64,000 nucleotides of DNA from Polyangiales bacterium (GTDB lineage: Bacteria > Myxococcota_A > Polyangia > Polyangiales > Houyiibacteriaceae): NCBI GenBank assembly GCA_965227405.1, contig OZ245758.1:2868338-2932337 (forward strand), given 5' to 3'. A model generated the notes under the pieces. That model did no database searches, was not told the DNA's origin, and saw only the letters and a list, made by a program, of their open reading frames with translations. Positions 3,783-64,000 of this stretch are shown here, one piece after another. Numbering within the stretch: position 1 is the stretch's first letter; every line of letters begins with the position of its first letter. A program made the position numbers and the translations under genes.

Positions 3783-4069
3783 GGGCGTCTCCTTGTCTGT
3801 TGTACGGAGCAACGCGCGTGCCGTTCCGAATCGACGGAAAAAGCCCGCAATGTCGGTCGCGCTGCGGCTTGAGCGAGACATTGATGTCGCGGTGCGTGCA
3901 CACCTATACAGACGTCGTTCACACCCGATCGTTCTACGAATTCGACGTGCGCTGAGAGTCCCAAGAAACACGAGCCAAACAGTGTCTAACGGGACACTTC
4001 AGTTTCGCTGAACTTCGTTTGAACGCTCCACCAGGGTCCGGCAACGGAAGGTGTAGAGGTCAGAAGAAC

Positions 4070-5079: not shown

Positions 5080-6011
5080 GGCGCCTCTCGACACACCGTG
5101 TGAGGCGTCAGGTCGATCTCGTTCATCCGGGCTGCCGCGTGAACAACAGGTCCCGCGTCCTCATCACTCGAGCACATCACGTTCAACGTGTGATGCGCGA
5201 CGGCACGCGTGTTGTCATGACCCGCTAGTGCAACGAGGGCGTGGATTACCGCCGGCGTATGGTTTCGTGAAAAACTCAGAATGCCAGCTCTCGCAGGCGG
5301 CGAGAGTTCTTGCTCCATGCGCAGCAACCCCGCTGCATTCTGCGGTTCGGCAGTGTTTGCAAAGCGCGTGAGCAGAGCATCGCGCACGGCAACGGGTTGT
5401 TGCGCGTAGCGCTCAGAAATCGGAGTGCCGCTCGCTTCTGAGTACGCGATCTCACCGCATGCAATCCCCCCGTCGGTGAGTTCTCGACGCAGTGCGTTGC
5501 TCACGGTCGACGTCTCATCGGCTTGAGCGCCGATGTCTACGAGCTGGCAGAGCCCAATACTGCGCACAACGGTTCGCTCATGCTCCAACAACGCAAGTAC
5601 TTCCGAGCGTTCGTTGAACGGCTCGTCTTTGGGCATGTCGATATCGACGACAAAGAACACCATCGAGAACAAGAAGAACGCCATCATGGGTTGAAACGCG
5701 GAGATCACCAGCGCCCAAATCGCGTTGCTTCGGATGTACGCGTGCCACGGGCTGTACTCACCGGCAGCATCGCGCGCAGCGGCGTACTTCAGCCATTCGC
5801 GCGCACGACCCACCGCCATGATCGTGGTGATCAGCATCGGGTTGAAGACGATGCCCAGCGCCGCGATGTTGGACGGCTCCCATCGACCCGGTGTGGGATC
5901 GGGTCGTTTCTGTTGCCCAGCAACGCAAACCGGACACTCGGACGCGCCACCGAAGTGGTATTCGAGCACCACGCGTTGGCAGCGTGGACAGTTGCGAGTC
6001 GTTTCTTCCAC
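5076..6011 (-). CDS. zinc-ribbon membrane protein, function unknown
   Basis: N-terminal CPRC...CPVC zinc ribbon, then two TM helices and a soluble C-terminal domain. Lies directly downstream of clpB on the same strand. Confidence 0.4.
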   Translation of the reverse strand: MEETTRNCPRCQRVVLEYHFGGASECPVCVAGQQKRPDPTPGRWEPSNIAALGIVFNPMLITTIMAVGRAREWLKYAAARDAAGEYSPWHAYIRSNAIWALVISAFQPMMAFFLFSMVFFVVDIDMPKDEPFNERSEVLALLEHERTVVRSIGLCQLVDIGAQADETSTVSNALRRELTDGGIACGEIAYSEASGTPISERYAQQPVAVRDALLTRFANTAEPQNAAGLLRMEQELSPPARAGILSFSRNHTPAVIHALVALAGHDNTRAVAHHTLNVMCSSDEDAGPVVHAAARMNEIDLTPHTVCREAP

Positions 6012-23568: not shown

Positions 23569-23757
23569 ATGGGCGACTTTGCCCTGCTCTTGATCCTGGA
23601 TGACATTGTCGTCGACCCAGCGCGCTTTGAGACCTGGCGAAGCGCGTGGCGCAAAGCACGCCAATACGAAGACCCGGGCGCCATCGAGTTTTTCGATCGC
23701 TACTACGAGTGCGTAGAGACCGGCTTCGCCTACGCGATCAACAAGTTCACGCGTTAG
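23569..23757 (+). CDS. small hypothetical protein (62 aa)
   Basis: High GC3 codon bias consistent with coding. Convergent with the SDR gene and overlapping its 3' end. No domain recognised. Confidence 0.3.
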   Translation: MGDFALLLILDDIVVDPARFETWRSAWRKARQYEDPGAIEFFDRYYECVETGFAYAINKFTR

Positions 23758-27280: not shown

Positions 27281-28823
27281 GTCGAAGGTGACCGACCAGA
27301 TCGATCAGGCGTCCGAGAAGCAGCGGGAGCTACCGAAAGAGGCGATGGTGGTGACTTCGCACCCGCGTGCCGTAGAGGCGGCGACCAAGGTGCTCGAGGC
27401 AGGAGGTCATGCCGTTGATGCCGCGATTTGTGCAGCTGCAGTGCTGGGCGTCGTGGACCCCATGAGCACAGGTGTGGGTGGGGACTGTTTTGCGATGGTG
27501 TGGGACGCGCACGCGTTGTACGGGTTCAACGGATCGGGGCGTGCGCCGGCGAAGGCATCGTTGGAGGATCTGCAGGCACGAGGTCTGGACGCGGTGCCCG
27601 AGCGCGGTGTGTTGCCGATCACAGTTCCGGGAGCGGTGGACGCGTGGTGGCAGTTGCATAAGCGCTTCGGTCGCGCGTCATGGGATTCGTTGTTGGAGCC
27701 GGCGGTCGTTGCAGCGCGGGACGGCTTCGCAGTCACGCCTGTGGTGGGACGTGACTGGGGTCGCAGCGCGTACGCGTACCAACCGGTTCCGCAGGTGGGT
27801 CAGGTGTATACGCAGCCCGAGTTGGCGCAGTCGCTTTCGAAGCTACAGCGCGGTCGAGATGTGTTCTACAGCGGCGAGTTGGCCGATGCGATCGCAGCAC
27901 GTGTTGCGGAGGACGATGGTTGGCTGACGAAGTCGGATCTTGAAGCGCATCAGGGCGAGTGGGTGGAACCGCTTGAAGGGGTGTATCGCGGACATCCCGT
28001 GTACGAGTTGCCGCCCAACGGGCAGGGCGTGGTGGTGTTGCAAGCGTTGGCAATGCTCGAAGAGCTTTCGCTGCGCGACATGGATGTGGTGGAGCAGACC
28101 CATGTGCAGATCGAAGCGTTGAAGTTGGCGTTTGCGGATGCGCGAGTGCATGTGGGCGATCCTTCGCGAAGCGATGTGTCGCGTTTGCTCGACTACGCGT
28201 ACATCGAAGAGCGCGTGAGCCTGATCGGCGACCAGGCTTGCGCCTCGGCGGTGGGTGGACTGCCGAATGGCGACACCGTGTACGTCGCTGTGGTGGATGC
28301 GCAGGGCAACGCGTGTTCGTTGATCAACAGCGTGTACATGCACTTTGGATCTGGCGTTGTGGTTGACGGAATGTGCTTACAAAACAGAGGTGTTCTGTTT
28401 CGGAGCGATCCAGCGCATCCAAGTGCGTTGGCACCGGGCCGAAGGCCGTACCACACGATCATTCCGGCGATGGCGTTTCGGGGCTTGGTGCCTTGGTTGG
28501 TGTTTGGGGTCGTCGGTGGTTACCAGCAGCCGCAAGCGCAGGTGCAGCTACTGCATCGTTGGATCGATCGTGGAGAAGCCTTGCAAGCTGCGGTGGATGC
28601 ACCGCGCTTCCGGTGGATCGAGGGGAACAAGGTTCAACTCGAAGAGGGTACCGATCCAACGTTGATCGAAGGGTTGCGAAACCGAGGCCACAACGTGGTG
28701 GAGGGAGCTGCGTTCGGAGGCTTTGGTGGAGCTCAAGCGATCGAGATCAGCGAGTCACTCACTGGTGCGACTGACCCACGCAAAGACGGAACCATCGGGG
28801 TGTTAACTTTGGGGACAGGTTAA
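27279..28823 (+). CDS. ggt: gamma-glutamyltransferase
   Basis: Start placed at MSKVTDQ. GGT family motifs are present (TSHPRAVEAATKVLEAGGHAVDAAI, and the catalytic-Thr region GDTVYVAVVDAQGNACSLINSVYMHFGSGVV). The stop codon lies inside the left inverted repeat of the downstream repeat element. Confidence 0.85.
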   Translation: MSKVTDQIDQASEKQRELPKEAMVVTSHPRAVEAATKVLEAGGHAVDAAICAAAVLGVVDPMSTGVGGDCFAMVWDAHALYGFNGSGRAPAKASLEDLQARGLDAVPERGVLPITVPGAVDAWWQLHKRFGRASWDSLLEPAVVAARDGFAVTPVVGRDWGRSAYAYQPVPQVGQVYTQPELAQSLSKLQRGRDVFYSGELADAIAARVAEDDGWLTKSDLEAHQGEWVEPLEGVYRGHPVYELPPNGQGVVVLQALAMLEELSLRDMDVVEQTHVQIEALKLAFADARVHVGDPSRSDVSRLLDYAYIEERVSLIGDQACASAVGGLPNGDTVYVAVVDAQGNACSLINSVYMHFGSGVVVDGMCLQNRGVLFRSDPAHPSALAPGRRPYHTIIPAMAFRGLVPWLVFGVVGGYQQPQAQVQLLHRWIDRGEALQAAVDAPRFRWIEGNKVQLEEGTDPTLIEGLRNRGHNVVEGAAFGGFGGAQAIEISESLTGATDPRKDGTIGVLTLGTG

Positions 28824-29065
28824 CTATTTAACCGACCCTCGATCTCTAAGTCATTGAAACCACGAGTTTCGTGTGTGCTTGGACATGCTTTGCAGGCGCC
28901 TCAGAGAGCGTTTCGCAATGCTCCTACTTCAGATCACACCTGACTCGTGGATGTGAGCCGAGTTTCTTCGGCGCAGGGCGCCAGATCTGATTCGCTGAAT
29001 TGAATGATCTTGGTCAGTTGGAGATCGAGGGTCGGTTAAATAGTTAACCTGTCCCCAGAGTTAAC
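28802..29065. mobile_element. MITE-like element, 264 bp, with 45-bp terminal inverted repeats (GGGGACAGG-hairpin family, copy A)
   Basis: Left arm gttaactttggggacaggttaactatttaaccgaccctcgatctc and right arm gagatcgagggtcggttaaatagttaacctgtccccagagttaac match at 44 of 45 positions as reverse complements. The interior is lower-GC non-coding DNA. Both convergent flanking genes have stop codons in or against the arms. Coordinates +/- 2. Confidence 0.7.
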
Positions 29066-29926
29066 CTACTCCAAGAACGGGGTGCAGTACTCGTCGCTGA
29101 TGAGTTCGGTGATCGCTGTGGCCATGTCCAGGGTTCCGGCTCGCACGTCGCGGATGCTCCAGGCTCGGCCACCGGTTTGGTTGGGCAGGGTGTCCATTCC
29201 CAAGTACGGCTCGTGAAAACCTTGGCCCACGTTGGGCGACATCCCGGCTCCACAAAACTCGCCTGCGCCCGGCGCCGAAAAACTTCCCACACGCAATTCG
29301 TTGCTCACCAACACGCCTGCAACTTCGGAGTACATCCGCTCGATCGGGATTCCACTCAGCGACGCTCCTCGCTCCGCAAACGTATCGTCGGTTGCGTGGA
29401 TGATCAGCTTGGTCGCGCTCGGTCGCCACGGACACGCGGTTGCTGCGGCCCACAACGCATCCAGACTGTTCTCGGGACAATCACCGTTGGAATCCGAACC
29501 GCCACCTGCAGGCTGTCGGTTGGTCGAGGTGAAATCGCGCCAGTTCATGAACTCGGCCTGCAATGACTCCACGGTCGTGAAGTTCGCACACCCATTCACG
29601 GTCACGACGTCGTCGACAAACACAACCAAGCCAAACTGGGTATCTGAAGTCAGCGCACGTGCTGCATTCCAGACACTGGTGATCCCGTTGGTGATCTGAT
29701 CCAACTCGTCTTCCATCGACGTGCTCGTATCGATCACGAACACCACATCCAAAGGATCGTCGCACTCGCTATCGGCATCGATGTTCGAGTCGGTCCCTGG
29801 TACATCCGGAACACCCAACGTGTCGCTCGCAGGCACATCGGCGACACCGCCGTCGCGCGTGGGTCGGTCGTCGTCACCACACGCACCAAGAACAACAACG
29901 AGAGCAAGCGAGCATCTTCCAAGCAT
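29066..29926 (-). CDS. secreted VWA domain lipoprotein
   Basis: 286 aa with a lipobox (VVVLGACGDDD) and the MIDAS motif VFVIDTSTSM (DxSxS). Its stop abuts the right inverted repeat of repeat copy A. Confidence 0.65.
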   Translation of the reverse strand: MLGRCSLALVVVLGACGDDDRPTRDGGVADVPASDTLGVPDVPGTDSNIDADSECDDPLDVVFVIDTSTSMEDELDQITNGITSVWNAARALTSDTQFGLVVFVDDVVTVNGCANFTTVESLQAEFMNWRDFTSTNRQPAGGGSDSNGDCPENSLDALWAAATACPWRPSATKLIIHATDDTFAERGASLSGIPIERMYSEVAGVLVSNELRVGSFSAPGAGEFCGAGMSPNVGQGFHEPYLGMDTLPNQTGGRAWSIRDVRAGTLDMATAITELISDEYCTPFLE

Positions 29927-40645: not shown

Positions 40646-42727
40646 ATGATCGCGCTGGCGCTGATGGGATGTCCCCCCGCCGGCCTGCAGTTGCCCGAGA
40701 CCACGCCGGACGTGCTTCAGGCGGGTTCGCTGCAACGTGAAGTTCGCGCGCTGACCGACCTGGATAGCGTTCGTGATGTCGTCGAAGGCGGAGGCCTGGT
40801 GTACGTCGCGACCGATCGCGGCCTACTGGTGTTCGGCGAGTCCACAACGCGGATGGGTCGCAACGAAGGTCTGCCTTCAGACGACGTGCGCGCGCTGGCG
40901 ATCAGTGCCAACGGCGTGGTCACCGTGGGAACCGCCAACGGGTTTGTGGAAGTCACCGGAAACCAGATCAGCAACCCCGTAGTTCCGAACGCTCCGGTGG
41001 GTGAGATCGTTGCGTTGCACACCCAGGACGACGGAACGCGTTGGGCGTGTGGCCAAAGCGGGCTGGCGCGCCTTCGTGACGGCGTTTGGTCCGGTTACGG
41101 CGAAGCGATGCAGTGCACCGGCTTGTGGGCGACTCCCGAGGGTCGTCTTTGGGTCGGAACCACCAACGGGCTTTTGTACCTGGATGCCGACGATGTGATT
41201 CGCGAACACGTCGAAGGACGTGGGCTTCCGGCAGGTTGGGTCCGCGGTGTGGTTCCCGCGCAACCGGGTCAGGCATTCGTGTTGGTGCAGAACGCCAGCG
41301 AAAGCCATCTCGCGTGGTTCGATGGCAACCGTTGGTACGACTACACCGTTGCCGACTTTGATCGGCCGGTGGTGGGTCTAGCGCGAGTTGGAACCGAGAC
41401 CGTGATGTTCACGCGCGGCTACGCGTTCACCATTCGCGATGCGACGCGAGCCAGTGGGGTTCCGCTGCATCCCTTGGCGCGTGGCGATCGCCTTCAGGTG
41501 TTGGGTTATCGGGCGCGTCAGCTTCCTGGTGCTGTTGCGTCGTGTGATCGCGAAGCGATTCCTGCTCGTCCGCCGGTTCGTTTGGCTGCAGTGCCACCGA
41601 ACCACCCCACCATCGAGGCGCCTGGCTTTGTCGTCGCTCCGTTGAGTGCGACTGGACAGAACGTCTACGGGGTGCATGCGCACGGTGGAGTTGTGTACGT
41701 CGCCGATCGCAACCAAGGTGTGAGCGCGTTGACCGCAAGCGGCGTGGGTCGTTCGTACCGAAGCCGTGATCTAGTCGCCGAGCGCGACCTTCAGGTGCAA
41801 AGCGACGAGCGTGGTCGCACGTGGGTCCTGACCGACGAAGGTGTGCTCGCGGAGCAAAACGACGGTGCGCTGCGACGCGTGGCGACCCCGGAAGGCGTTC
41901 GTTGTTGGTCGATGACGGCAGCTGCGCGTGGCCTTTACGTTGCGTGCACGGTCAACGGGACGCCCAATGCGATTCGCGTGTACCGCCGTTCGGGTGACGA
42001 CTGGGCACCGGCGATCGATACGGTGCTGACGTTTGGTGCCGCGGATGACGCGCCTCGTCCGCAGGTGGTGTCGACGCCGATGATCGGTGTGCGCGATGAC
42101 GAGGAAACCTGGTTGGCGATGCGCGTACGGATGCCGGATGGAACCGGACCTGTGATGCGCGGTGTGGCGCAGATCAACGGCGAGACAGTGCTGTACCATC
42201 ACAGCCGAAGCGATCCCGCCGTCGATGGTGAAGGTTCGCTGGTGATGCCGGACGATTTCTCATCGCTTGATGTGAACGAAGAAGGCAACGTGTGGTTCTC
42301 CACGCTCAACGGTGCAGTTCGCATCGGTAACCACCAGGCCATCGTGTTTGGTGAGGCTCGCGGTGTGCGTGGTGAGGTCGTGAGCGACGTGTTGGTGGGA
42401 ACCCAGGCTCGGGTGTGGGTCGCTGCCGCTGAAGGACCTGGCTACTACTACAACCGCGAGTTTGAATTCCGGATGCCGCAGGCCGTTCGTGCGACGCGTC
42501 CGATTGGGTTGGCGCTCGATCCGCGCGGCAACATCTGGGGTGCTGGACCCAACGGTTTGGTTCGCTACGACGGCAACGACTGGTCTGTGTTCGCAGCGGA
42601 TTCCGGACTGCCCACGACGGAACTGGTCGACGTCGAAGCCGCCGCAGACGGCGAGATTTGGGTGCTCGGACGCGACCAAGTTGTGGTGCTTGGTGCACCG
42701 ACTCAGCGCGAGGTCGCGCCCGAGTAG
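40646..42727 (+). CDS. beta-propeller lipoprotein with two-component-regulator-propeller-like repeats
   Basis: Start placed at MIALALMGCPPAG (lipobox). It has repeated aromatic/Gly motifs (LWVGTTNGLLYLD, VWFSTLNGAVRIG, IWGAGPNGLVRYDGNDWSVF) typical of Reg_prop repeats. About 694 aa. Confidence 0.5.
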   Translation: MIALALMGCPPAGLQLPETTPDVLQAGSLQREVRALTDLDSVRDVVEGGGLVYVATDRGLLVFGESTTRMGRNEGLPSDDVRALAISANGVVTVGTANGFVEVTGNQISNPVVPNAPVGEIVALHTQDDGTRWACGQSGLARLRDGVWSGYGEAMQCTGLWATPEGRLWVGTTNGLLYLDADDVIREHVEGRGLPAGWVRGVVPAQPGQAFVLVQNASESHLAWFDGNRWYDYTVADFDRPVVGLARVGTETVMFTRGYAFTIRDATRASGVPLHPLARGDRLQVLGYRARQLPGAVASCDREAIPARPPVRLAAVPPNHPTIEAPGFVVAPLSATGQNVYGVHAHGGVVYVADRNQGVSALTASGVGRSYRSRDLVAERDLQVQSDERGRTWVLTDEGVLAEQNDGALRRVATPEGVRCWSMTAAARGLYVACTVNGTPNAIRVYRRSGDDWAPAIDTVLTFGAADDAPRPQVVSTPMIGVRDDEETWLAMRVRMPDGTGPVMRGVAQINGETVLYHHSRSDPAVDGEGSLVMPDDFSSLDVNEEGNVWFSTLNGAVRIGNHQAIVFGEARGVRGEVVSDVLVGTQARVWVAAAEGPGYYYNREFEFRMPQAVRATRPIGLALDPRGNIWGAGPNGLVRYDGNDWSVFAADSGLPTTELVDVEAAADGEIWVLGRDQVVVLGAPTQREVAPE

Positions 42728-42730
42728 CTC

Positions 42731-43303
42731 ATGGCGTTTGAGGTTAAGGGGAGGGCGCTCGTTGCGACGATGCGGATGCTGGGCAAGGCGCCGGGCGGGG
42801 CCTCCTCAATCCTCGGCACCATGTCGGCGGACGACCAGGCGTACTTCGGCGAGTTGTTTCTGGAAGCCGGTTGGTATGCGATGGATCCCTACGTTCGGAT
42901 CATGGCGACCATCGCTGGAGCGCGCGGCTTATCGGTGCGGGAGTGGATGCGCATGCAAGCCGATCGGACTGCAGCGAGTGATGTTGAAGGCATCTATCGC
43001 ATGAGTCTCAAGTCCGCTTCGTTGGGTGACATGGCCAAGCGTTTGCCACGTGCATTCAATCGCTACTTCCAGCCCTGCAACGCCGTGTTGATGAAGCTTG
43101 GTGACGATTTCGCCGACTTCGAGTTGCGCGTGATTCCGACCAAGCACGCGGAGTTCTTCCGAGGCATCAACGAAGGCTTTGTGGTGGGTGCGCTTCGGTA
43201 TGCCGGCGCGAACAAACCGCGCGTGCGTTACGGCGACCCGGTTGCAGGCGACGCGCACGAGGGCGAAGCCACGTTGACGATGCCCTTTCGCGCGTCGTTT
43301 TAG
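42731..43303 (+). CDS. hypothetical protein (possibly a Myxococcales-type paralogous family)
   Basis: 190-aa soluble ORF with good codon bias. The TIGR02265/DUF2378 assignment is tentative. Confidence 0.35.
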   Translation: MAFEVKGRALVATMRMLGKAPGGASSILGTMSADDQAYFGELFLEAGWYAMDPYVRIMATIAGARGLSVREWMRMQADRTAASDVEGIYRMSLKSASLGDMAKRLPRAFNRYFQPCNAVLMKLGDDFADFELRVIPTKHAEFFRGINEGFVVGALRYAGANKPRVRYGDPVAGDAHEGEATLTMPFRASF

Positions 43304-44010
43304 CGGTAGGGCCCGACGCGCTTGGGGTAGAGACCGCGAAGTCGGTCGAGTCCTCGCCCGTGATGTCGCAGCACGTGTTTGACGGCTTTGCGATGGAACA
43401 CGCGCGGGTTGGGGCGGAGGTGCCGCTCCATCTCGCGATCGGGGATCTCCAGCAGGACTCCGAAGACCGCCAGTGCGTATGCGAGTTCGTGTTCCGCCAT
43501 CACGCCAAGACGACGCGCGAGCAGAAGGTTGTTGGCGCGAGCAGCGCGCGGTGCAGCCGCGTTGGCAGCGAACACACCGAAGCCGAGGTACACCGCGGTG
43601 GCGTCGATGACGTATTCGACGTCGCCTGGGATCGCATCCGGTACCGAGTGCACGACGTAGTGTGCGACGCCTCGTGCGAAGTGCGTGACCAAGCGTGCGG
43701 GGTCCATCAACCACGAAGGGTCGTACGGGATCGGGAACCCTTCGTCGCCCGCTTCGCCGTGTAGGAATTCTTGGTCGGGGACGACGTGAAGCGGCCACTC
43801 CGAGAGTTGTGCGTGTTCTTGGACGAAGAGGAAGTAGTCCTCTGCGAGTTCTTCGCCTTCGAGTTGTTTGTCGACCGGGAAGTCGAGCGCCGTCGGTGTG
43901 ACCAGGGGTCGACCGGCGAAGCGGATCTCGCTGTCGTGGTGATGCAGAAGCCAAGACCAAGTCTCGAAAAGCCATTCGATAAAACCAGGCTTCGGGAGCA
44001 TCACACTCAA
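43300..44010 (-). CDS. hypothetical protein
   Basis: 236-aa ORF with coding-like composition, convergent with and overlapping the previous gene by 4 nt. Confidence 0.35.
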   Translation of the reverse strand: MSVMLPKPGFIEWLFETWSWLLHHHDSEIRFAGRPLVTPTALDFPVDKQLEGEELAEDYFLFVQEHAQLSEWPLHVVPDQEFLHGEAGDEGFPIPYDPSWLMDPARLVTHFARGVAHYVVHSVPDAIPGDVEYVIDATAVYLGFGVFAANAAAPRAARANNLLLARRLGVMAEHELAYALAVFGVLLEIPDREMERHLRPNPRVFHRKAVKHVLRHHGRGLDRLRGLYPKRVGPYR

Positions 44011-44071: not shown

Positions 44072-44668
44072 ATGGGGGATGACTACGAGCGCGACTACAT
44101 GGACGGCGATGGCGCCATGTATCGAGAGAAGCACGTCTCCAAGTTGTTCTCGGCGTTGATGTTGTTGCCGGCGTTGGCTGCTGCTGCGGGTGGAATTGCC
44201 GCCGCGGTGCAGGGGGATTTTGCGGGAGCCGGCGCACTGGCTGTGGGTGCTTTGGGAGCCGGAACCGCCGGAGTGTTCTTCTCGGTGATGCGGACGATCG
44301 TGACTCCGAGCGAACTACGAGTGCAGTACGGAACGTTGGGACCGACCGTGGAACTCTCGTCGATTCGTTCGGTGGAAGTCGTGCGACTCAACGCCATGAC
44401 GCGACTGGCGATTGGCCCGAAGATTTGGCCCGAAGGTTGGCGTTATGTGTTTCCAGGAGCCACGCATGGAGTGCGTGTCGTGTACCAGGACGGGAAGCGA
44501 ACGAAGACGATCACCATTGCGGCCGATGATCCTGAAGCCTTAGCCGCGGCGATCCACCAGTCGAGCGCGACCGTGGGCATGCAAGTGCGCGTGGAAACCT
44601 CGACCGAGCAAGAAGTAGAAGAACAAGCGGGAGACTCAACCGACGAAGAATCCGAAACGCACCCATAG
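44072..44668 (+). CDS. hypothetical membrane protein
   Basis: Two N-terminal TM helices (Ala/Gly-rich), then a roughly 100-aa soluble domain. Its stop lies 13 nt before repeat copy B. Confidence 0.35.
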   Translation: MGDDYERDYMDGDGAMYREKHVSKLFSALMLLPALAAAAGGIAAAVQGDFAGAGALAVGALGAGTAGVFFSVMRTIVTPSELRVQYGTLGPTVELSSIRSVEVVRLNAMTRLAIGPKIWPEGWRYVFPGATHGVRVVYQDGKRTKTITIAADDPEALAAAIHQSSATVGMQVRVETSTEQEVEEQAGDSTDEESETHP

Positions 44669-44681
44669 GGGTGGGGATTTT

Positions 44682-44786
44682 GGGGACAGGGTCAGATCTG
44701 ACCTGAACTATGTGGCCATACATTCGCGTTTTAGGAAAAAGCGGACTGTATTTCGGGGAGTCCGGTTCAGATCTGACCCTGTCCCC
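44682..44786. mobile_element. MITE-like/REP-like element, about 105 bp, with 20-bp perfect terminal inverted repeats GGGGACAGGGTCAGATCTGA (family copy B)
   Basis: The left arm is ggggacagggtcagatctgacc and the right arm is tcagatctgaccctgtcccc. Each arm contains the palindrome tcagatctga. It sits between convergent genes. Coordinates +/- 2. Confidence 0.6.
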
Positions 44787-44809
44787 AATCTGAACTTTAC
44801 CCGGTTGGG

Positions 44810-61744: not shown

Positions 61745-62242
61745 GTGGGTAAGCCGAAGAAGCAGAAGTACGACGAGATGTTGTTCTTCTCGATCGCGAA
61801 GCCTGACGTCGATGCGGTGTTGAGGAAGGTCTTGGACGAACAGCGATACCTACTCGGTGTCGACGTTGTGGAAGAAAACGAGGTTTCGGTCCGGCATGTT
61901 CATTGGAGACGCGACGCACCGCCGATCAAGATCGATGAAGTGACCGGCAAGCTCGCGAAGCTCCGTATCGAGACAGCGCTCGAAGATCTGCAAGAGGTCG
62001 TCGATGCAAATCCCTACGCGTGGTTCACGCAATCTCCGCAGGAGGTGCGCGCACTGCGGCAGAGACTCAAGCAAGCATCCACTGTGGTGCGTTTTCGCCA
62101 CCCCGACGTGGGTATGGGTTGGCGTGGACCGTTCCGGGTGAGTCGTGCGCTTGCGGGCAAGCTTCGCTTCCAGTCAGGCGGAGTGTTGAAGCTCGCCGAC
62201 TACAGCTTCGAAACCCCCGGCGGTAAAGTCATCGGCCGCTAG
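61745..62242 (+). CDS. hypothetical protein
   Basis: 165-aa soluble ORF, last gene before repeat copy C. No domain recognised. Confidence 0.35.
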   Translation: MGKPKKQKYDEMLFFSIAKPDVDAVLRKVLDEQRYLLGVDVVEENEVSVRHVHWRRDAPPIKIDEVTGKLAKLRIETALEDLQEVVDANPYAWFTQSPQEVRALRQRLKQASTVVRFRHPDVGMGWRGPFRVSRALAGKLRFQSGGVLKLADYSFETPGGKVIGR

Positions 62243-63413
62243 GTGTAAATTATGGGGACAGGTTCATTAATGAACCGACCCATGATCGCTAAGCATGCGA
62301 AATTGCTGAAACTGGTGACGGCTCACGTGTGCGTCACGCAAAAGCCACGTGTTCGTGATGAGCCGTTTGGGGGAGTCGCTCGTAGAACCGAGCAGGCGAC
62401 GGCGCGCGCTATCTCCAATTCTCCATCCCCAATTGCCGCGCGCGTCGTCGCCCTCCTTCGAGAGCTACGAGGCTTTGGCTTCGAGCAGCGCTTCGACCGG
62501 GGCAAACCGTTGGGTTAGCTGCGCCATGACGTCGGTCACATCCACGCTCATGCGTTCGCTGAAAAGCGTCAGATCGAGCACCAAGTTGCTGACCGCCATT
62601 TCGATCAGCGACGGCTCGTCGGTCACCACCGCACGGTTGTCGTTGGTTTCCTGCGCGCCACCGACCAACAACTCATTTCGATCGACCAAGAGGATGATCT
62701 TGTGTTCCCAATGTGCGGCGAGCGAGTCGGGGTCGATGTCGTAGGTGAGTGTGCGTCCCACGTTAGGTAACGGTGTAAACGAGAAGAGAGTTACGTCCAC
62801 GCCGCGATCGACCGCATCTTGTAGTGCTTTCTCAAAGTGACGAGCTTCGCGTCCCCAGACCGACGCCACGACAGTGGACTTCGCTTTCTCGATCTTCTGA
62901 ACTGCCTGCTCGAGCATCGCTTCGTACCCTTCCACCGTCCACGTCACCGAAGTGTCGGGCTTGTCGGCGAGACGATCGATGCCTCCACGAAGTGACTCGA
63001 GGCTGCGCGTGAAACGTGTTTCGAGAAGCGCAAAGAGTTTCTCAGGCGCGAGCGGAACGTAGCGTGCTGGCTTTTCTTGAACTGCGTTGATCAGTCCCAA
63101 GCTTTGGAGCCGCTTGAGTACGTTGTAGATGGCCGAGCGCGGCACACCCGATTGCGTCGCCAGTTCATAGCCCGTTGCCGGGTTGGTCTTGAGGAGCGCG
63201 ACGTACGCTCGCGCATCGGTCGCTGTGAAGCCGAGCTGCTTCATCGCGGCGACAACCTTCTCCTCAACCTCCTGGGCCATACGATCGGCATACTGGACTC
63301 TGAAGCGTCACGCAAACATGAGTTACGCCGGAGGCAAGCCAGGTCAGTGTGGTTTCAAGCACTTAGCGATCACGGGTCGGTTCATTCCTGAACCTGTCCC
63401 CGAAATTTACACG
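62243..63413. mobile_element. 1.17-kb element bounded by about 47-bp inverted repeats of the GGGGACAGG-hairpin family (copy C), carrying a TrmB-family regulator gene
   Basis: The left arm is gtgtaaattatggggacaggttcattaatgaaccgacccatgatcgc. The reverse complement of the right arm is gtgtaaatttcggggacaggttcaggaatgaaccgacccgtgatcgc. The arms align with those of copy A (GGGGACAGGTT, palindrome, ACCGACCC, then GATC). The interior has visibly lower GC than the flanks. Confidence 0.6.
62465..63280 (-). CDS. TrmB-family transcriptional regulator
   Basis: 271 aa. The N-terminal winged helix (LGFTATDARAYVALLKTNPATGYELATQSGVPRSAIYNVLKRLQSLGLI) is the TrmB signature, and a C-terminal effector-binding-like domain follows. 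Confidence 0.7.
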   Translation of the reverse strand: MAQEVEEKVVAAMKQLGFTATDARAYVALLKTNPATGYELATQSGVPRSAIYNVLKRLQSLGLINAVQEKPARYVPLAPEKLFALLETRFTRSLESLRGGIDRLADKPDTSVTWTVEGYEAMLEQAVQKIEKAKSTVVASVWGREARHFEKALQDAVDRGVDVTLFSFTPLPNVGRTLTYDIDPDSLAAHWEHKIILLVDRNELLVGGAQETNDNRAVVTDEPSLIEMAVSNLVLDLTLFSERMSVDVTDVMAQLTQRFAPVEALLEAKAS

Positions 63414-63945
63414 ATGCGATCTTCCTCAATGCGTCGGTGCAACCTCGTGTTCGGAACGCGTGTTGTGCGCGTTCTGGAAGTCGCCACAGCGCCGCTGCGT
63501 AGCGTTCGTCGTCCTCGGTCGTCCACGGTTCGCCGACGAACTGCGCGAACGCTTGTGATGCACGCACCACGTCCTGGAGTTGTCGTCCAAGGTCGGCCTC
63601 GTCGCGATGACGCGTGGTGTGTCCGATGTGCTCGCTTGGATCCAAGTCGGCGTTGAGTCGCTTTGCTTCGTCTTCGCTCAGCTCGAGTTCAGCCGTTCCG
63701 TGTCGTACCTGCCAACGCCACACGTTTGCCAATTGACCCCAGGCATCGTCACCACCGTGGAGTTGTCGGATCCAAACCAAACACGCGTCAAGTGCGCTCG
63801 CTTGCCGAAACTGACGCGCGCGCTGGATGACGAAGGGCTCGATCGCACCCGCCAGGTCCGGATACACCGCAAACCAAGACTCGTGGTCCACGTCGTCACG
63901 GTGTTCTGCTGCGCGGCGAAACGCGCGCTTGTACTCGTCACACAC
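63382..63945 (-). CDS. hypothetical protein
   Basis: 187-aa ORF. Its last six codons and stop (RGQVQE*) are encoded by the right inverted repeat of copy C. Confidence 0.3.
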   Translation of the reverse strand: MCDEYKRAFRRAAEHRDDVDHESWFAVYPDLAGAIEPFVIQRARQFRQASALDACLVWIRQLHGGDDAWGQLANVWRWQVRHGTAELELSEDEAKRLNADLDPSEHIGHTTRHRDEADLGRQLQDVVRASQAFAQFVGEPWTTEDDERYAAALWRLPERAQHAFRTRGCTDALRKIASCKFRGQVQE

Positions 63946-64000
63946 GGTGTACAGAAGGTGAGGCGCGAGTACGTCGCGTAGCTCCGGTTTGGTTGCCCAG

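Follow-up and report, generated by a model that had tools for sequence, protein, structure and literature searches.

Genomes with repetitive extragenic palindromic (REP) sequences hold tens to hundreds of extragenic copies, along with a cognate single-copy gene for a REP-associated tyrosine transposase (RAYT) of the HUH/Y1 class. Correia elements in Neisseria, MIRUs in mycobacteria and RPEs in Rickettsia are further intergenic palindromic repeats that overlap gene ends. The REP systems used for comparison here are the enterobacterial bacterial interspersed mosaic elements (BIMEs) and the REP doublets (REPINs) of Pseudomonas fluorescens SBW25, which are mobilised by RAYTs (PMC3337134, PMC3116915). 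Pseudomonas REPINs consist of imperfect palindromes in inverted hairpin doublets with copy-specific spacers, decaying singlets, A/T-rich flanks and no target duplication, and a long palindromic singlet of the form 'a-palindrome-a' is the remnant of excision of the REPIN centre (PMC3337134). Tn3-derived miniature elements (TIMEs) provide a second comparison; the derivative TIME-RES measures 1186 bp and has 40-bp inverted repeats (PMC4133298). Here we describe a repeat family in a 64,000-nucleotide stretch of a Polyangiales bacterium (contig OZ245758.1, positions 2,868,338 to 2,932,337; hereafter the window), in which one pair of inverted repeat arms, copy C, brackets a trmB-like regulator gene.

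We give a probability of roughly 0.6 to the reading that the arms are REP/REPIN-like mobile non-coding repeats of a Sandaracinaceae-like myxobacterium, that trmB is an inherited bystander and that copy C formed in place. The association of trmB with the arms is best explained as incidental. The window is chromosomal DNA of 60.8% GC, and its best protein matches are named Myxococcota or Sandaracinaceae. Contigs of related genomes are cited below by L numbers.

Mobility and structure of the repeat family

The family is mobile, or was recently, as presence/absence polymorphism shows. It occupies three loci with six arms in the window, and none occurs in the next 9 kb. The sequence GGGGACAGGTT, with at most one mismatch, occurs eight times in the window against 0.7 expected. 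Six of these matches form the inverted pairs 28811/29056, 44682/44786 and 62254/63401; the remaining two are chance matches inside genes. Two of the loci, and a site that is empty in the window, are as follows.

23753-23757, no strand: empty site at the overlapping stops (TTAG) of a 62-amino-acid (aa) open reading frame (ORF) (+) and a short-chain dehydrogenase gene (-), where L027 has a 225-nt doublet
28790-29065, no strand: copy A, an inverted doublet with arms at 28800-28850 and 29016-29066, between the stops of gamma-glutamyltranspeptidase (GGT, +) and a VWA protein (-)
44661-44809, no strand: copy B, a short doublet flanked by the stops of a 198-aa ORF (+) on one side and of an alpha/beta hydrolase (-) on the other

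L027, which shares 88.5% identity with window 19.4-35.8 kb, has copy A plus another A-type doublet, 225 nt long (L027 16158-16382), and where this other doublet sits the window junction 23753/23754 is uninterrupted. At this one polymorphic site compared, the flanks of the L027 insertion hold no direct repeat of 2 nt or longer. The flanks of copies A, B and C and of the L027 insertion are inverted rather than direct, and there is no 5-bp duplication at any of them. The copy-A site holds the full doublet in L027; in L026 (VWA protein 86% identical in aa) it holds one perfect 48-nt palindrome only, which lies at the GGT/VWA junction (GTGTAAATTCTGGGGACAGGTTAATT followed by AATTAACCTGTCCCCAGAATTTAC, -24 kcal/mol). 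This palindrome carries the copy C-type tail GTGTAAATT, which shows the outer tail to be part of the repeat rather than of the target. L020 to L022 carry a solo arm (L020 6017-6075), 106 nt downstream of the orthologue of a 165-aa gene that adjoins copy C in the window, and oriented like the left arm there.

A 98%-identical strain (SRR23272279) has a copy C structure identical to that of the window. Two contigs from its Logan assembly, L018 and L019, both terminate in the perfect palindrome of the left arm (window 62255-62272). Contig breaks inside this hairpin are expected because the palindrome is repeated, and the repeat family breaks up short-read assemblies of such genomes. L027 also holds a partial duplicate, of about 46 nt, of the copy A spacer (ACCACCAGACTCGTGGATGTGAGCCGAGTCT...GGGCGCCAAATCTGA) outside the right arm and before the VWA stop (about L027 10806-10852). 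The duplicate may have arisen by genuine template switching or be an error of the assembly, as the contig comes from a long-read assembly at 1.9x.

The placement of the repeats follows one pattern. The outer end of every arm lies on or beside the stop codon of a gene transcribed toward that arm, and all four independent element loci (4/4) sit at convergent junctions, compared with about 13 of the roughly 59 junctions in the window. At copy A the left arm contains the GGT stop and the right arm adjoins the VWA stop; at copy B the left end contains the stop of the 198-aa ORF and the right end adjoins that of the hydrolase. The ends of host genes can be supplied by the repeat itself, as last codons plus stop (28790-28823, 44661-44668 and 63382-63412). 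GGT ends ...GVLTLGTG*, the 198-aa ORF stops in CCATAG and a 213-aa protein beside copy C ends CKFRGQVQE*. In L026 the palindrome encodes the GGT tail in another reading frame.

We derived the repeat unit from an alignment of the six window arms and one arm from a relative. From outer to inner end it consists of an AT-rich tail (GTGTAAATTnT or GTGTTAACTnT), the invariant GGGGACAGG, a 12-nt palindrome, CCGACCC and GATCnCTAAG. The 12-nt segment varies among loci yet remains palindromic (TTCATTAATGAA, TTAACTATTTAA, GTCAGATCTGAC), and within the half-site of this dyad only G, T and A are invariant. CCGACCC is predicted to pair back to GGG, so that each arm would form an imperfect hairpin. Pairing is kept in 92.9% of cells over the seven arms, against 16-54% in slid controls, with two compensatory pairs, which is modest support for the hairpin from few sequences. 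Copy B folds as a single long hairpin (-39 kcal/mol, z -7.4). The three arm pairs of the window have spacers of 50, 165 and 1068 nt that are mutually unrelated.

Similarity among independent copies continues beyond the arms, for about 15 nt inward (TTGAAACCAC) and for 10-21 nt outward. An earlier note on this DNA, made from the sequence before any database search, had recognised the arms correctly and set their limits too narrowly, since the conserved repeat reaches up to about 21 nt outward and about 15 nt inward. The motif (G)AACCAnnnGG stands at one end of copy A and of the separate L027 copy; at the opposite end, copy B and the L027 copy share CCCAACCGGGT. Neither an Rfam nor a tRNA scan gave a match in the window. 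A role for single arms as intrinsic terminators was considered and dropped: no T-run follows the hairpin, and the scan gave background levels.

The earlier suggestion that the repeats are mobilised in trans is supported. The family is dispersed and has no coding capacity, its presence/absence polymorphism shows that it moves, and no transposase or recombinase domain was found among the roughly 60 window ORFs or in the 9.3 kb past the window end; mobilisation in trans follows from its being non-coding without a transposase nearby. The mover would most likely be a REP-associated Y1 transposase (RAYT, IS200-like) that is present in single copy and acts on single-stranded hairpins, and no such enzyme was found among the window ORFs or on the L019 contig. 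Doublets are wedged between the stops of convergent genes, often providing last codons and stop, with spacers unrelated among copies. They insert without visible target duplication and can collapse to a perfect 'a-palindrome-a' hairpin.

Copy C and its trmB-like gene

Copy C and the segments that it encloses are listed here.

62243-62293, plus strand: left arm, a REP-like unit with the TAG stop of the 165-aa gene directly at its outer end
62294-62351, no strand: 58-nt gap between left arm and trmB module, with no counterpart in relatives; homology to L001, L020 and L028 ends at about 62352
62352-62458, no strand: conserved non-coding segment of 107 nt downstream of trmB, with a 15-bp-stem hairpin at 62394-62451
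62465-63280, minus strand: trmB-like gene, 271 aa, the only ORF between the arms, with a TrmB winged helix and the N-subdomain of the effector domain
63281-63327, minus strand: trmB upstream region, conserved in relatives and containing CGTAACTCATGTTTGCGTGACGC
63328-63361, no strand: 34-nt gap between trmB module and right arm, in which about 15 nt beside the arm (TGCTTGAAACCAC) match the left end of copy A
63362-63412, minus strand: right arm, which encodes the last roughly 9 residues and TGA stop of the 213-aa neighbour

An inverted-repeat search found the arms as 51-nt sequences, 90% complementary and 1068 nt apart, which bears out the earlier description of inverted repeats of about 47 bp around a TrmB gene. 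Their 28-nt core, GGGGACAGGTTCATTAATGAACCGACCC, occurs twice, with 0 occurrences expected in shuffles. As that description also held, the left arm carries a perfect 12-nt palindrome (TTCATTAATGAA) and the right arm an imperfect variant, and the arms match those of copy A (about 80% identity), with GGGGACAGG also common to copy B (44682 / 44786). The left arm runs from the AT-rich tail GTGTAAATTAT through GGGGACAGG, TTCATTAATGAA and CCGACCC to GATCGCTAAG, and its hairpin folds at -8.6 kcal/mol (z -3.3). The claim that the right arm encodes the C-terminus and stop of its neighbour proved right: the 213-aa gene on the minus strand stops at TGA 63382-63384 within the arm. The gene is real, being called as 213 aa in the 98%-identical relative and having 21 homologue clusters, and its homology ends at residue 176/187, directly ahead of the arm-encoded tail.

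The two gaps would complete the repeat-derived part of copy C. The 34-nt gap is repeat-derived, as it shares the stretch beside the arm with the left end of copy A. The 58-nt gap gave no further match when searched and is presumably a repeat-derived spacer. With the arms, these parts total 194 nt (51+58+34+51), the usual size of a doublet. The inner flanks of the arms are not complementary past 51 nt (p = 0.3).

The single enclosed gene does encode a TrmB-like winged-helix protein, as first noted. Its product matches PF01978 at 3.5e-21 over the full length of the profile (1-68/68) and PDB 3QPH at 3.8e-11. It matches PF11495 at 1.4e-7 (31.5 bits, cut-off 22.2) over profile positions 3-119 of 233 only. 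Archaeal TrmB proteins have 338-342 aa, compared with 271 here, and the NCBIfam equivalog scores are far under their cut-offs. The protein thus appears TrmB-like, possibly without a complete effector (sugar-binding) domain.

The composition of copy C does not set it apart from the host. Its interior had been thought noticeably less GC-rich than its surroundings; its GC of 0.588 lies at the 12th percentile of the window (mean 0.608, sd 0.017), and host genes with Pfam support span 0.58-0.62. The codon usage of trmB is also host-typical, at a distance of 0.357 from the host pool against 0.369 +/- 0.063 for host genes. We found 355 homologues. Those fetched, from related metagenome and Logan assemblies, are 72-93% identical in aa (orthologues in L001, L004-L007, L020-25 and L028). 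The exact protein is recorded on one contig.

Orthologues with as little as 72-76% aa identity retain a motif upstream of trmB, CGTAACTCAnGTTTGCGTGACGC (63305-63327, minus strand). Like CGTAACTCATGTTTGCGTGACGC in the same region, this motif may serve as a promoter or an autoregulatory site, and it is unrelated to the arm palindrome. An exact 12-nt part of it, GCGTCACGCAAA, recurs as a direct repeat on the far side of the gene, in the 58-nt gap beside the left arm (62331-62342). GCGTSACGC was considered as an enriched operator and rejected, since the window has 5 matches where 3.75 are expected. The 107-nt segment downstream of trmB has stems at 62394-62408 and 62437-62451, forming a 15-bp GC stem with a 28-nt loop (TATCTCCAATTCTCCATCCCCAATTGCC). 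It has counterparts in L001 (about 5320-5425), L020 (9562-9640) and L028 (2365-2473) and no Rfam match. Relative to trmB it has the same orientation in the window and L001 and the opposite one in L020 and L028, and it may represent a small RNA or a hairpin prone to flipping.

Gene order in relatives points to a local rearrangement around trmB. In L001, L020-25 and L028 the order is Metallophos(-), DUF3616(+), RRM_1(+), TrmB(+), OMP(+), Pkinase(-), FHA-sigma54 activator(+), and in these lineages no arm lies next to trmB or within 7-15 kb of it. In L020 this block directly follows genes for VTC, DUF4956, HlyD-like, OEP-like and 157-aa proteins, and the corresponding block of the window does likewise. 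In the window and L019 the order runs from OEP through 165-aa(+), left arm, TrmB(-), right arm, 213(-), 177(-), 388(+) and 162(-), and continues with DUF3616(-), Metallophos(+), R2K(+), 81(+), OMP(+), Pkinase(-) and FHA-sigma54(+). On this comparison, the window lineage has the Metallophos/R2K-to-TrmB block inverted in situ. L004 and L001 have the arrangement TrmB(+) ... fn3(-), Inositol_P(-), Mur ligase(-), cNMP(-) in common, which makes the orientation in the window the derived one. In place of RRM_1 upstream of trmB, the window lineage alone has four orphan genes.

Through these changes the order and orientation of trmB relative to DUF3616-Metallophos have stayed as in the relatives, with trmB 4 kb from DUF3616. 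This conserved arrangement is most simply read as trmB having stayed in its block throughout. At the nucleotide level, homology with L001, L020 and L028 covers only 62352-63327 of the window. One arm of copy C lies at the inversion junction, 3' of the 165-aa gene, and the other at the junction of the four-gene block, 3' of the 213-aa gene. The second inversion end (L019 about 3875-3910) has no arm, and inversion of the block by the arms is accordingly unsupported.

Copy C would then be a REP pair with an abnormally long spacer of 1068 nt, formed in place rather than as a transposon that imported a regulator. In this scheme the block from Metallophos and DUF3616 to TrmB would have been inverted and RRM_1 replaced, with one arm at each of the two junctions. 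The arms might be two singlets of one subtype, or halves of one doublet at the 165-aa/213-aa junction that embedded the trmB module. The 194-nt total and the 90% identity of the arms favour one doublet; the non-complementary inner flanks, the solo arm of L020 and the conserved gene order favour two singlets. A single doublet split by trmB is neither supported nor excluded by the lack of complementarity past 51 nt.

The neighbourhood has other peculiarities. The four orphan genes beside the right arm (162, 388, 177 and 213 aa; L019 6823-9899, the last gene being window 63382-64000) have no Pfam, NCBIfam, PHROG or PDB match. The 21 homologue clusters of the 213-aa protein are distant, and its GC content at third codon positions (0.63) is below that of typical host genes (about 0.70). 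The 165-aa protein (61745-62242) gave only one match in a word-indexed search of 5.8 billion proteins. L020 nonetheless has a 51%-identical syntenic orthologue, a member of an orphan family missed by the indexed search. Window 41039-43911 aligns with L004 1-3597, and window 32.1-34.9 kb and 57.3-57.8 kb align with L005; in these more distant relatives trmB stands beside genes that lie 20-30 kb off in the window. The neighbourhood is, on these alignments, heavily reshuffled among related genomes, independently of the repeat. An earlier position of trmB at copy B was considered and rejected: L004 synteny with window 41.0-43.9 kb stops at 44010, and the next genes are not homologous.

Alternative explanations for copy C

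Several observations weigh against the favoured reading. The arms of copy C are of the same subtype and 90% identical, and their outer ends abut convergent stops as in genuine single insertions. The 194 nt of repeat-derived parts would also suit a single doublet that had taken up or transported trmB. One inversion end lacks an arm, which leaves a causal part of the arms in the rearrangements unsupported, and there is no RAYT or other transposase in the window ORFs or the 9.3 kb beyond. Presence and absence were compared at a single clean site, where a 1-3-nt duplication is compatible with the data, and the favoured reading does not account for the Tn3-like appearance of the 40-nt GGGG...CTAAG stretch. 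The likeness of the arms, their seat on convergent stops (shared with the proven insertion and with copies A and B) and the element-sized total are also what would be expected if copy C were a non-autonomous transposon with cargo, on the model of TIME-RES or of a minimal insertion cassette, formed by a doublet that captured trmB and moved whole into the 165-aa/213-aa junction. Homology to relatives ceases within 34-58 nt of both arms, which also speaks for such a unit, and single-gene non-autonomous elements of 1.2 kb with 40-bp inverted repeats have precedent (PMC4133298). We nevertheless regard capture of the regulator as cargo, which the earlier note had proposed, as unlikely. The gene is a resident orthologue of host-typical composition that keeps its ancestral orientation beside its ancestral neighbour in the DUF3616-metallophosphatase block, and by our own rough estimate a random hop in a 9-Mb genome would restore that order with a probability of about 5e-4. 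No second copy of the unit is known, no target duplication is seen, the inner flanks are not complementary past the arms, and L020 already has a solo arm 3' of the 165-aa orthologue. Related genomes in three lineages carry trmB without flanking repeats, an outcome that the earlier note had named as refuting its proposal, with the caveat that gene order around trmB is rearranged in the window lineage.

The arms could instead be the ends of a classical miniature element derived from a DDE transposon, with GGGG...CTAAG as the terminal repeat of a Tn3-family TIME. The stretch from GGGGACAGG to GATCGCTAAG is 40 nt long and has GGGG at its start and CTAAG at its end, like the ends of Tn3, Tn21 and Tn1721; this likeness is a lead and not a test. 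AT-rich sequence flanks the stretch. TIMEs are shorter than 300 bp, and TIME-RES measures 1186 bp (PMC4133298). We think this identity improbable: the 5-bp direct repeat is absent at copies A, B and C and at the polymorphic L027 insertion, conservation and inverted repeat run 11-21 nt outside GGGG, each arm has a hairpin of its own, the spacers are not conserved, and BLAST with arm and whole-element queries found no match among 72,556 plasmids (PLSDB). A comparably slim chance attaches to a functional arm-trmB-arm unit, either as the first REPIN-like doublet to move a captured regulator or with the TrmB-like protein, taken as a winged helix joined to a PLD-like fold that bears a degenerate 'EHK...D...GG' motif, as a dedicated repeat-binding partner in the position of a RAYT. 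Slimmer still is the other suggestion of the earlier note, that the hairpins are operator or decoy sites for the enclosed regulator. The dyad in the arm core (6-nt half-sites, 4-nt spacer) does resemble the sites of dimeric winged-helix regulators, and the sole gene between a pair of arms encodes such a regulator. However, the arms sit at the 3' ends of genes and over stop codons, the family is insertion-polymorphic, the half-sites vary at all but three bases, the orthologous loci lack arms, and the conserved motif upstream of trmB is unrelated. Least credible is an invertible switch, with the arms as the recombination sites at which the regulator gene is flipped. Inverted repeats do bracket a complete gene and promoter, and the nearby 107-nt segment differs in orientation among relatives; against this, the window and the 98% strain are oriented alike, trmB has its ancestral orientation to DUF3616, no recombinase occurs in the window or within 9.3 kb past its end, and the arms also occur as a dispersed, mobile family.

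Significance and comparison with known systems

If the favoured reading holds, the locus adds a REP/REPIN-like repeat family from the little-studied Sandaracinaceae-type Myxococcota. This repeat has an unusually precise habit, sitting on convergent stop codons, rewriting protein C-termini and breaking short-read assemblies. Close relatives show its insertion, its collapse to a perfect palindrome and its decay to a singlet, and it coincides with local rearrangement junctions. There is also a lesson for annotation, as bracketing by long inverted repeats need not mean cargo. Should a complete genome reveal the mobilising enzyme, the family would offer a tractable case for how such repeats pick stop-stop junctions.

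The Tn3-derived TIMEs share with this family a terminal stretch of about 40 nt (GGGG...TAAG), sizes of about 100-300 bp and mobilisation in trans, and a 1.2-kb derivative with one non-transposase gene exists among them. They differ in that the myxobacterial repeat has no 5-bp duplication, runs past GGGG, so that the frame is not at the very end of the element, has an internal hairpin per arm and an unconserved interior, and bears no similarity to plasmid-borne Tn3 ends. We rejected identity with Tn3-type TIMEs on the missing duplication, the outward extension and the absent plasmid matches. Correia elements, MIRUs and RPEs resemble the family as small non-coding repeats at gene boundaries that are able to give stop codons or C-terminal residues. 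The differences are a TA duplication at Correia elements, a tandem direct arrangement in MIRUs and in-frame insertion within genes for RPEs, and none of them is known to show the doublet and long-palindrome behaviour of the myxobacterial repeat.

The REP/REPIN systems come closest, with several differences. The host here is a myxobacterium; a literature search on miniature inverted-repeat elements in myxobacteria found nothing on that phylum and did not extend to the REP/REPIN literature there. No RAYT was found in the window ORFs or on L019. The myxobacterial arms are longer (51-70 nt conserved) and have a GGGG...CTAAG frame, and their placement on or over convergent stop codons is strikingly exact. 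The likenesses cover both structure and behaviour. Both are short imperfect palindromes with conserved flanks. Both form inverted doublets (here copies A and B and the L027 copy) around spacers that differ per copy, and a doublet can fold as one long hairpin, as predicted here for copy B. Both also occur as singlets, like the solo arm of L020, and as a perfect palindrome where relatives have a doublet, as in L026, and both have A/T-rich outer flanks and lie at gene 3' ends. REPINs make no target duplication, and at the one polymorphic site compared here none of 2 nt or longer is seen. A last feature is both like and unlike: the one gene typically bracketed by REPs in those systems is the RAYT, and here it is a TrmB-type regulator whose orthologues elsewhere are not bracketed.

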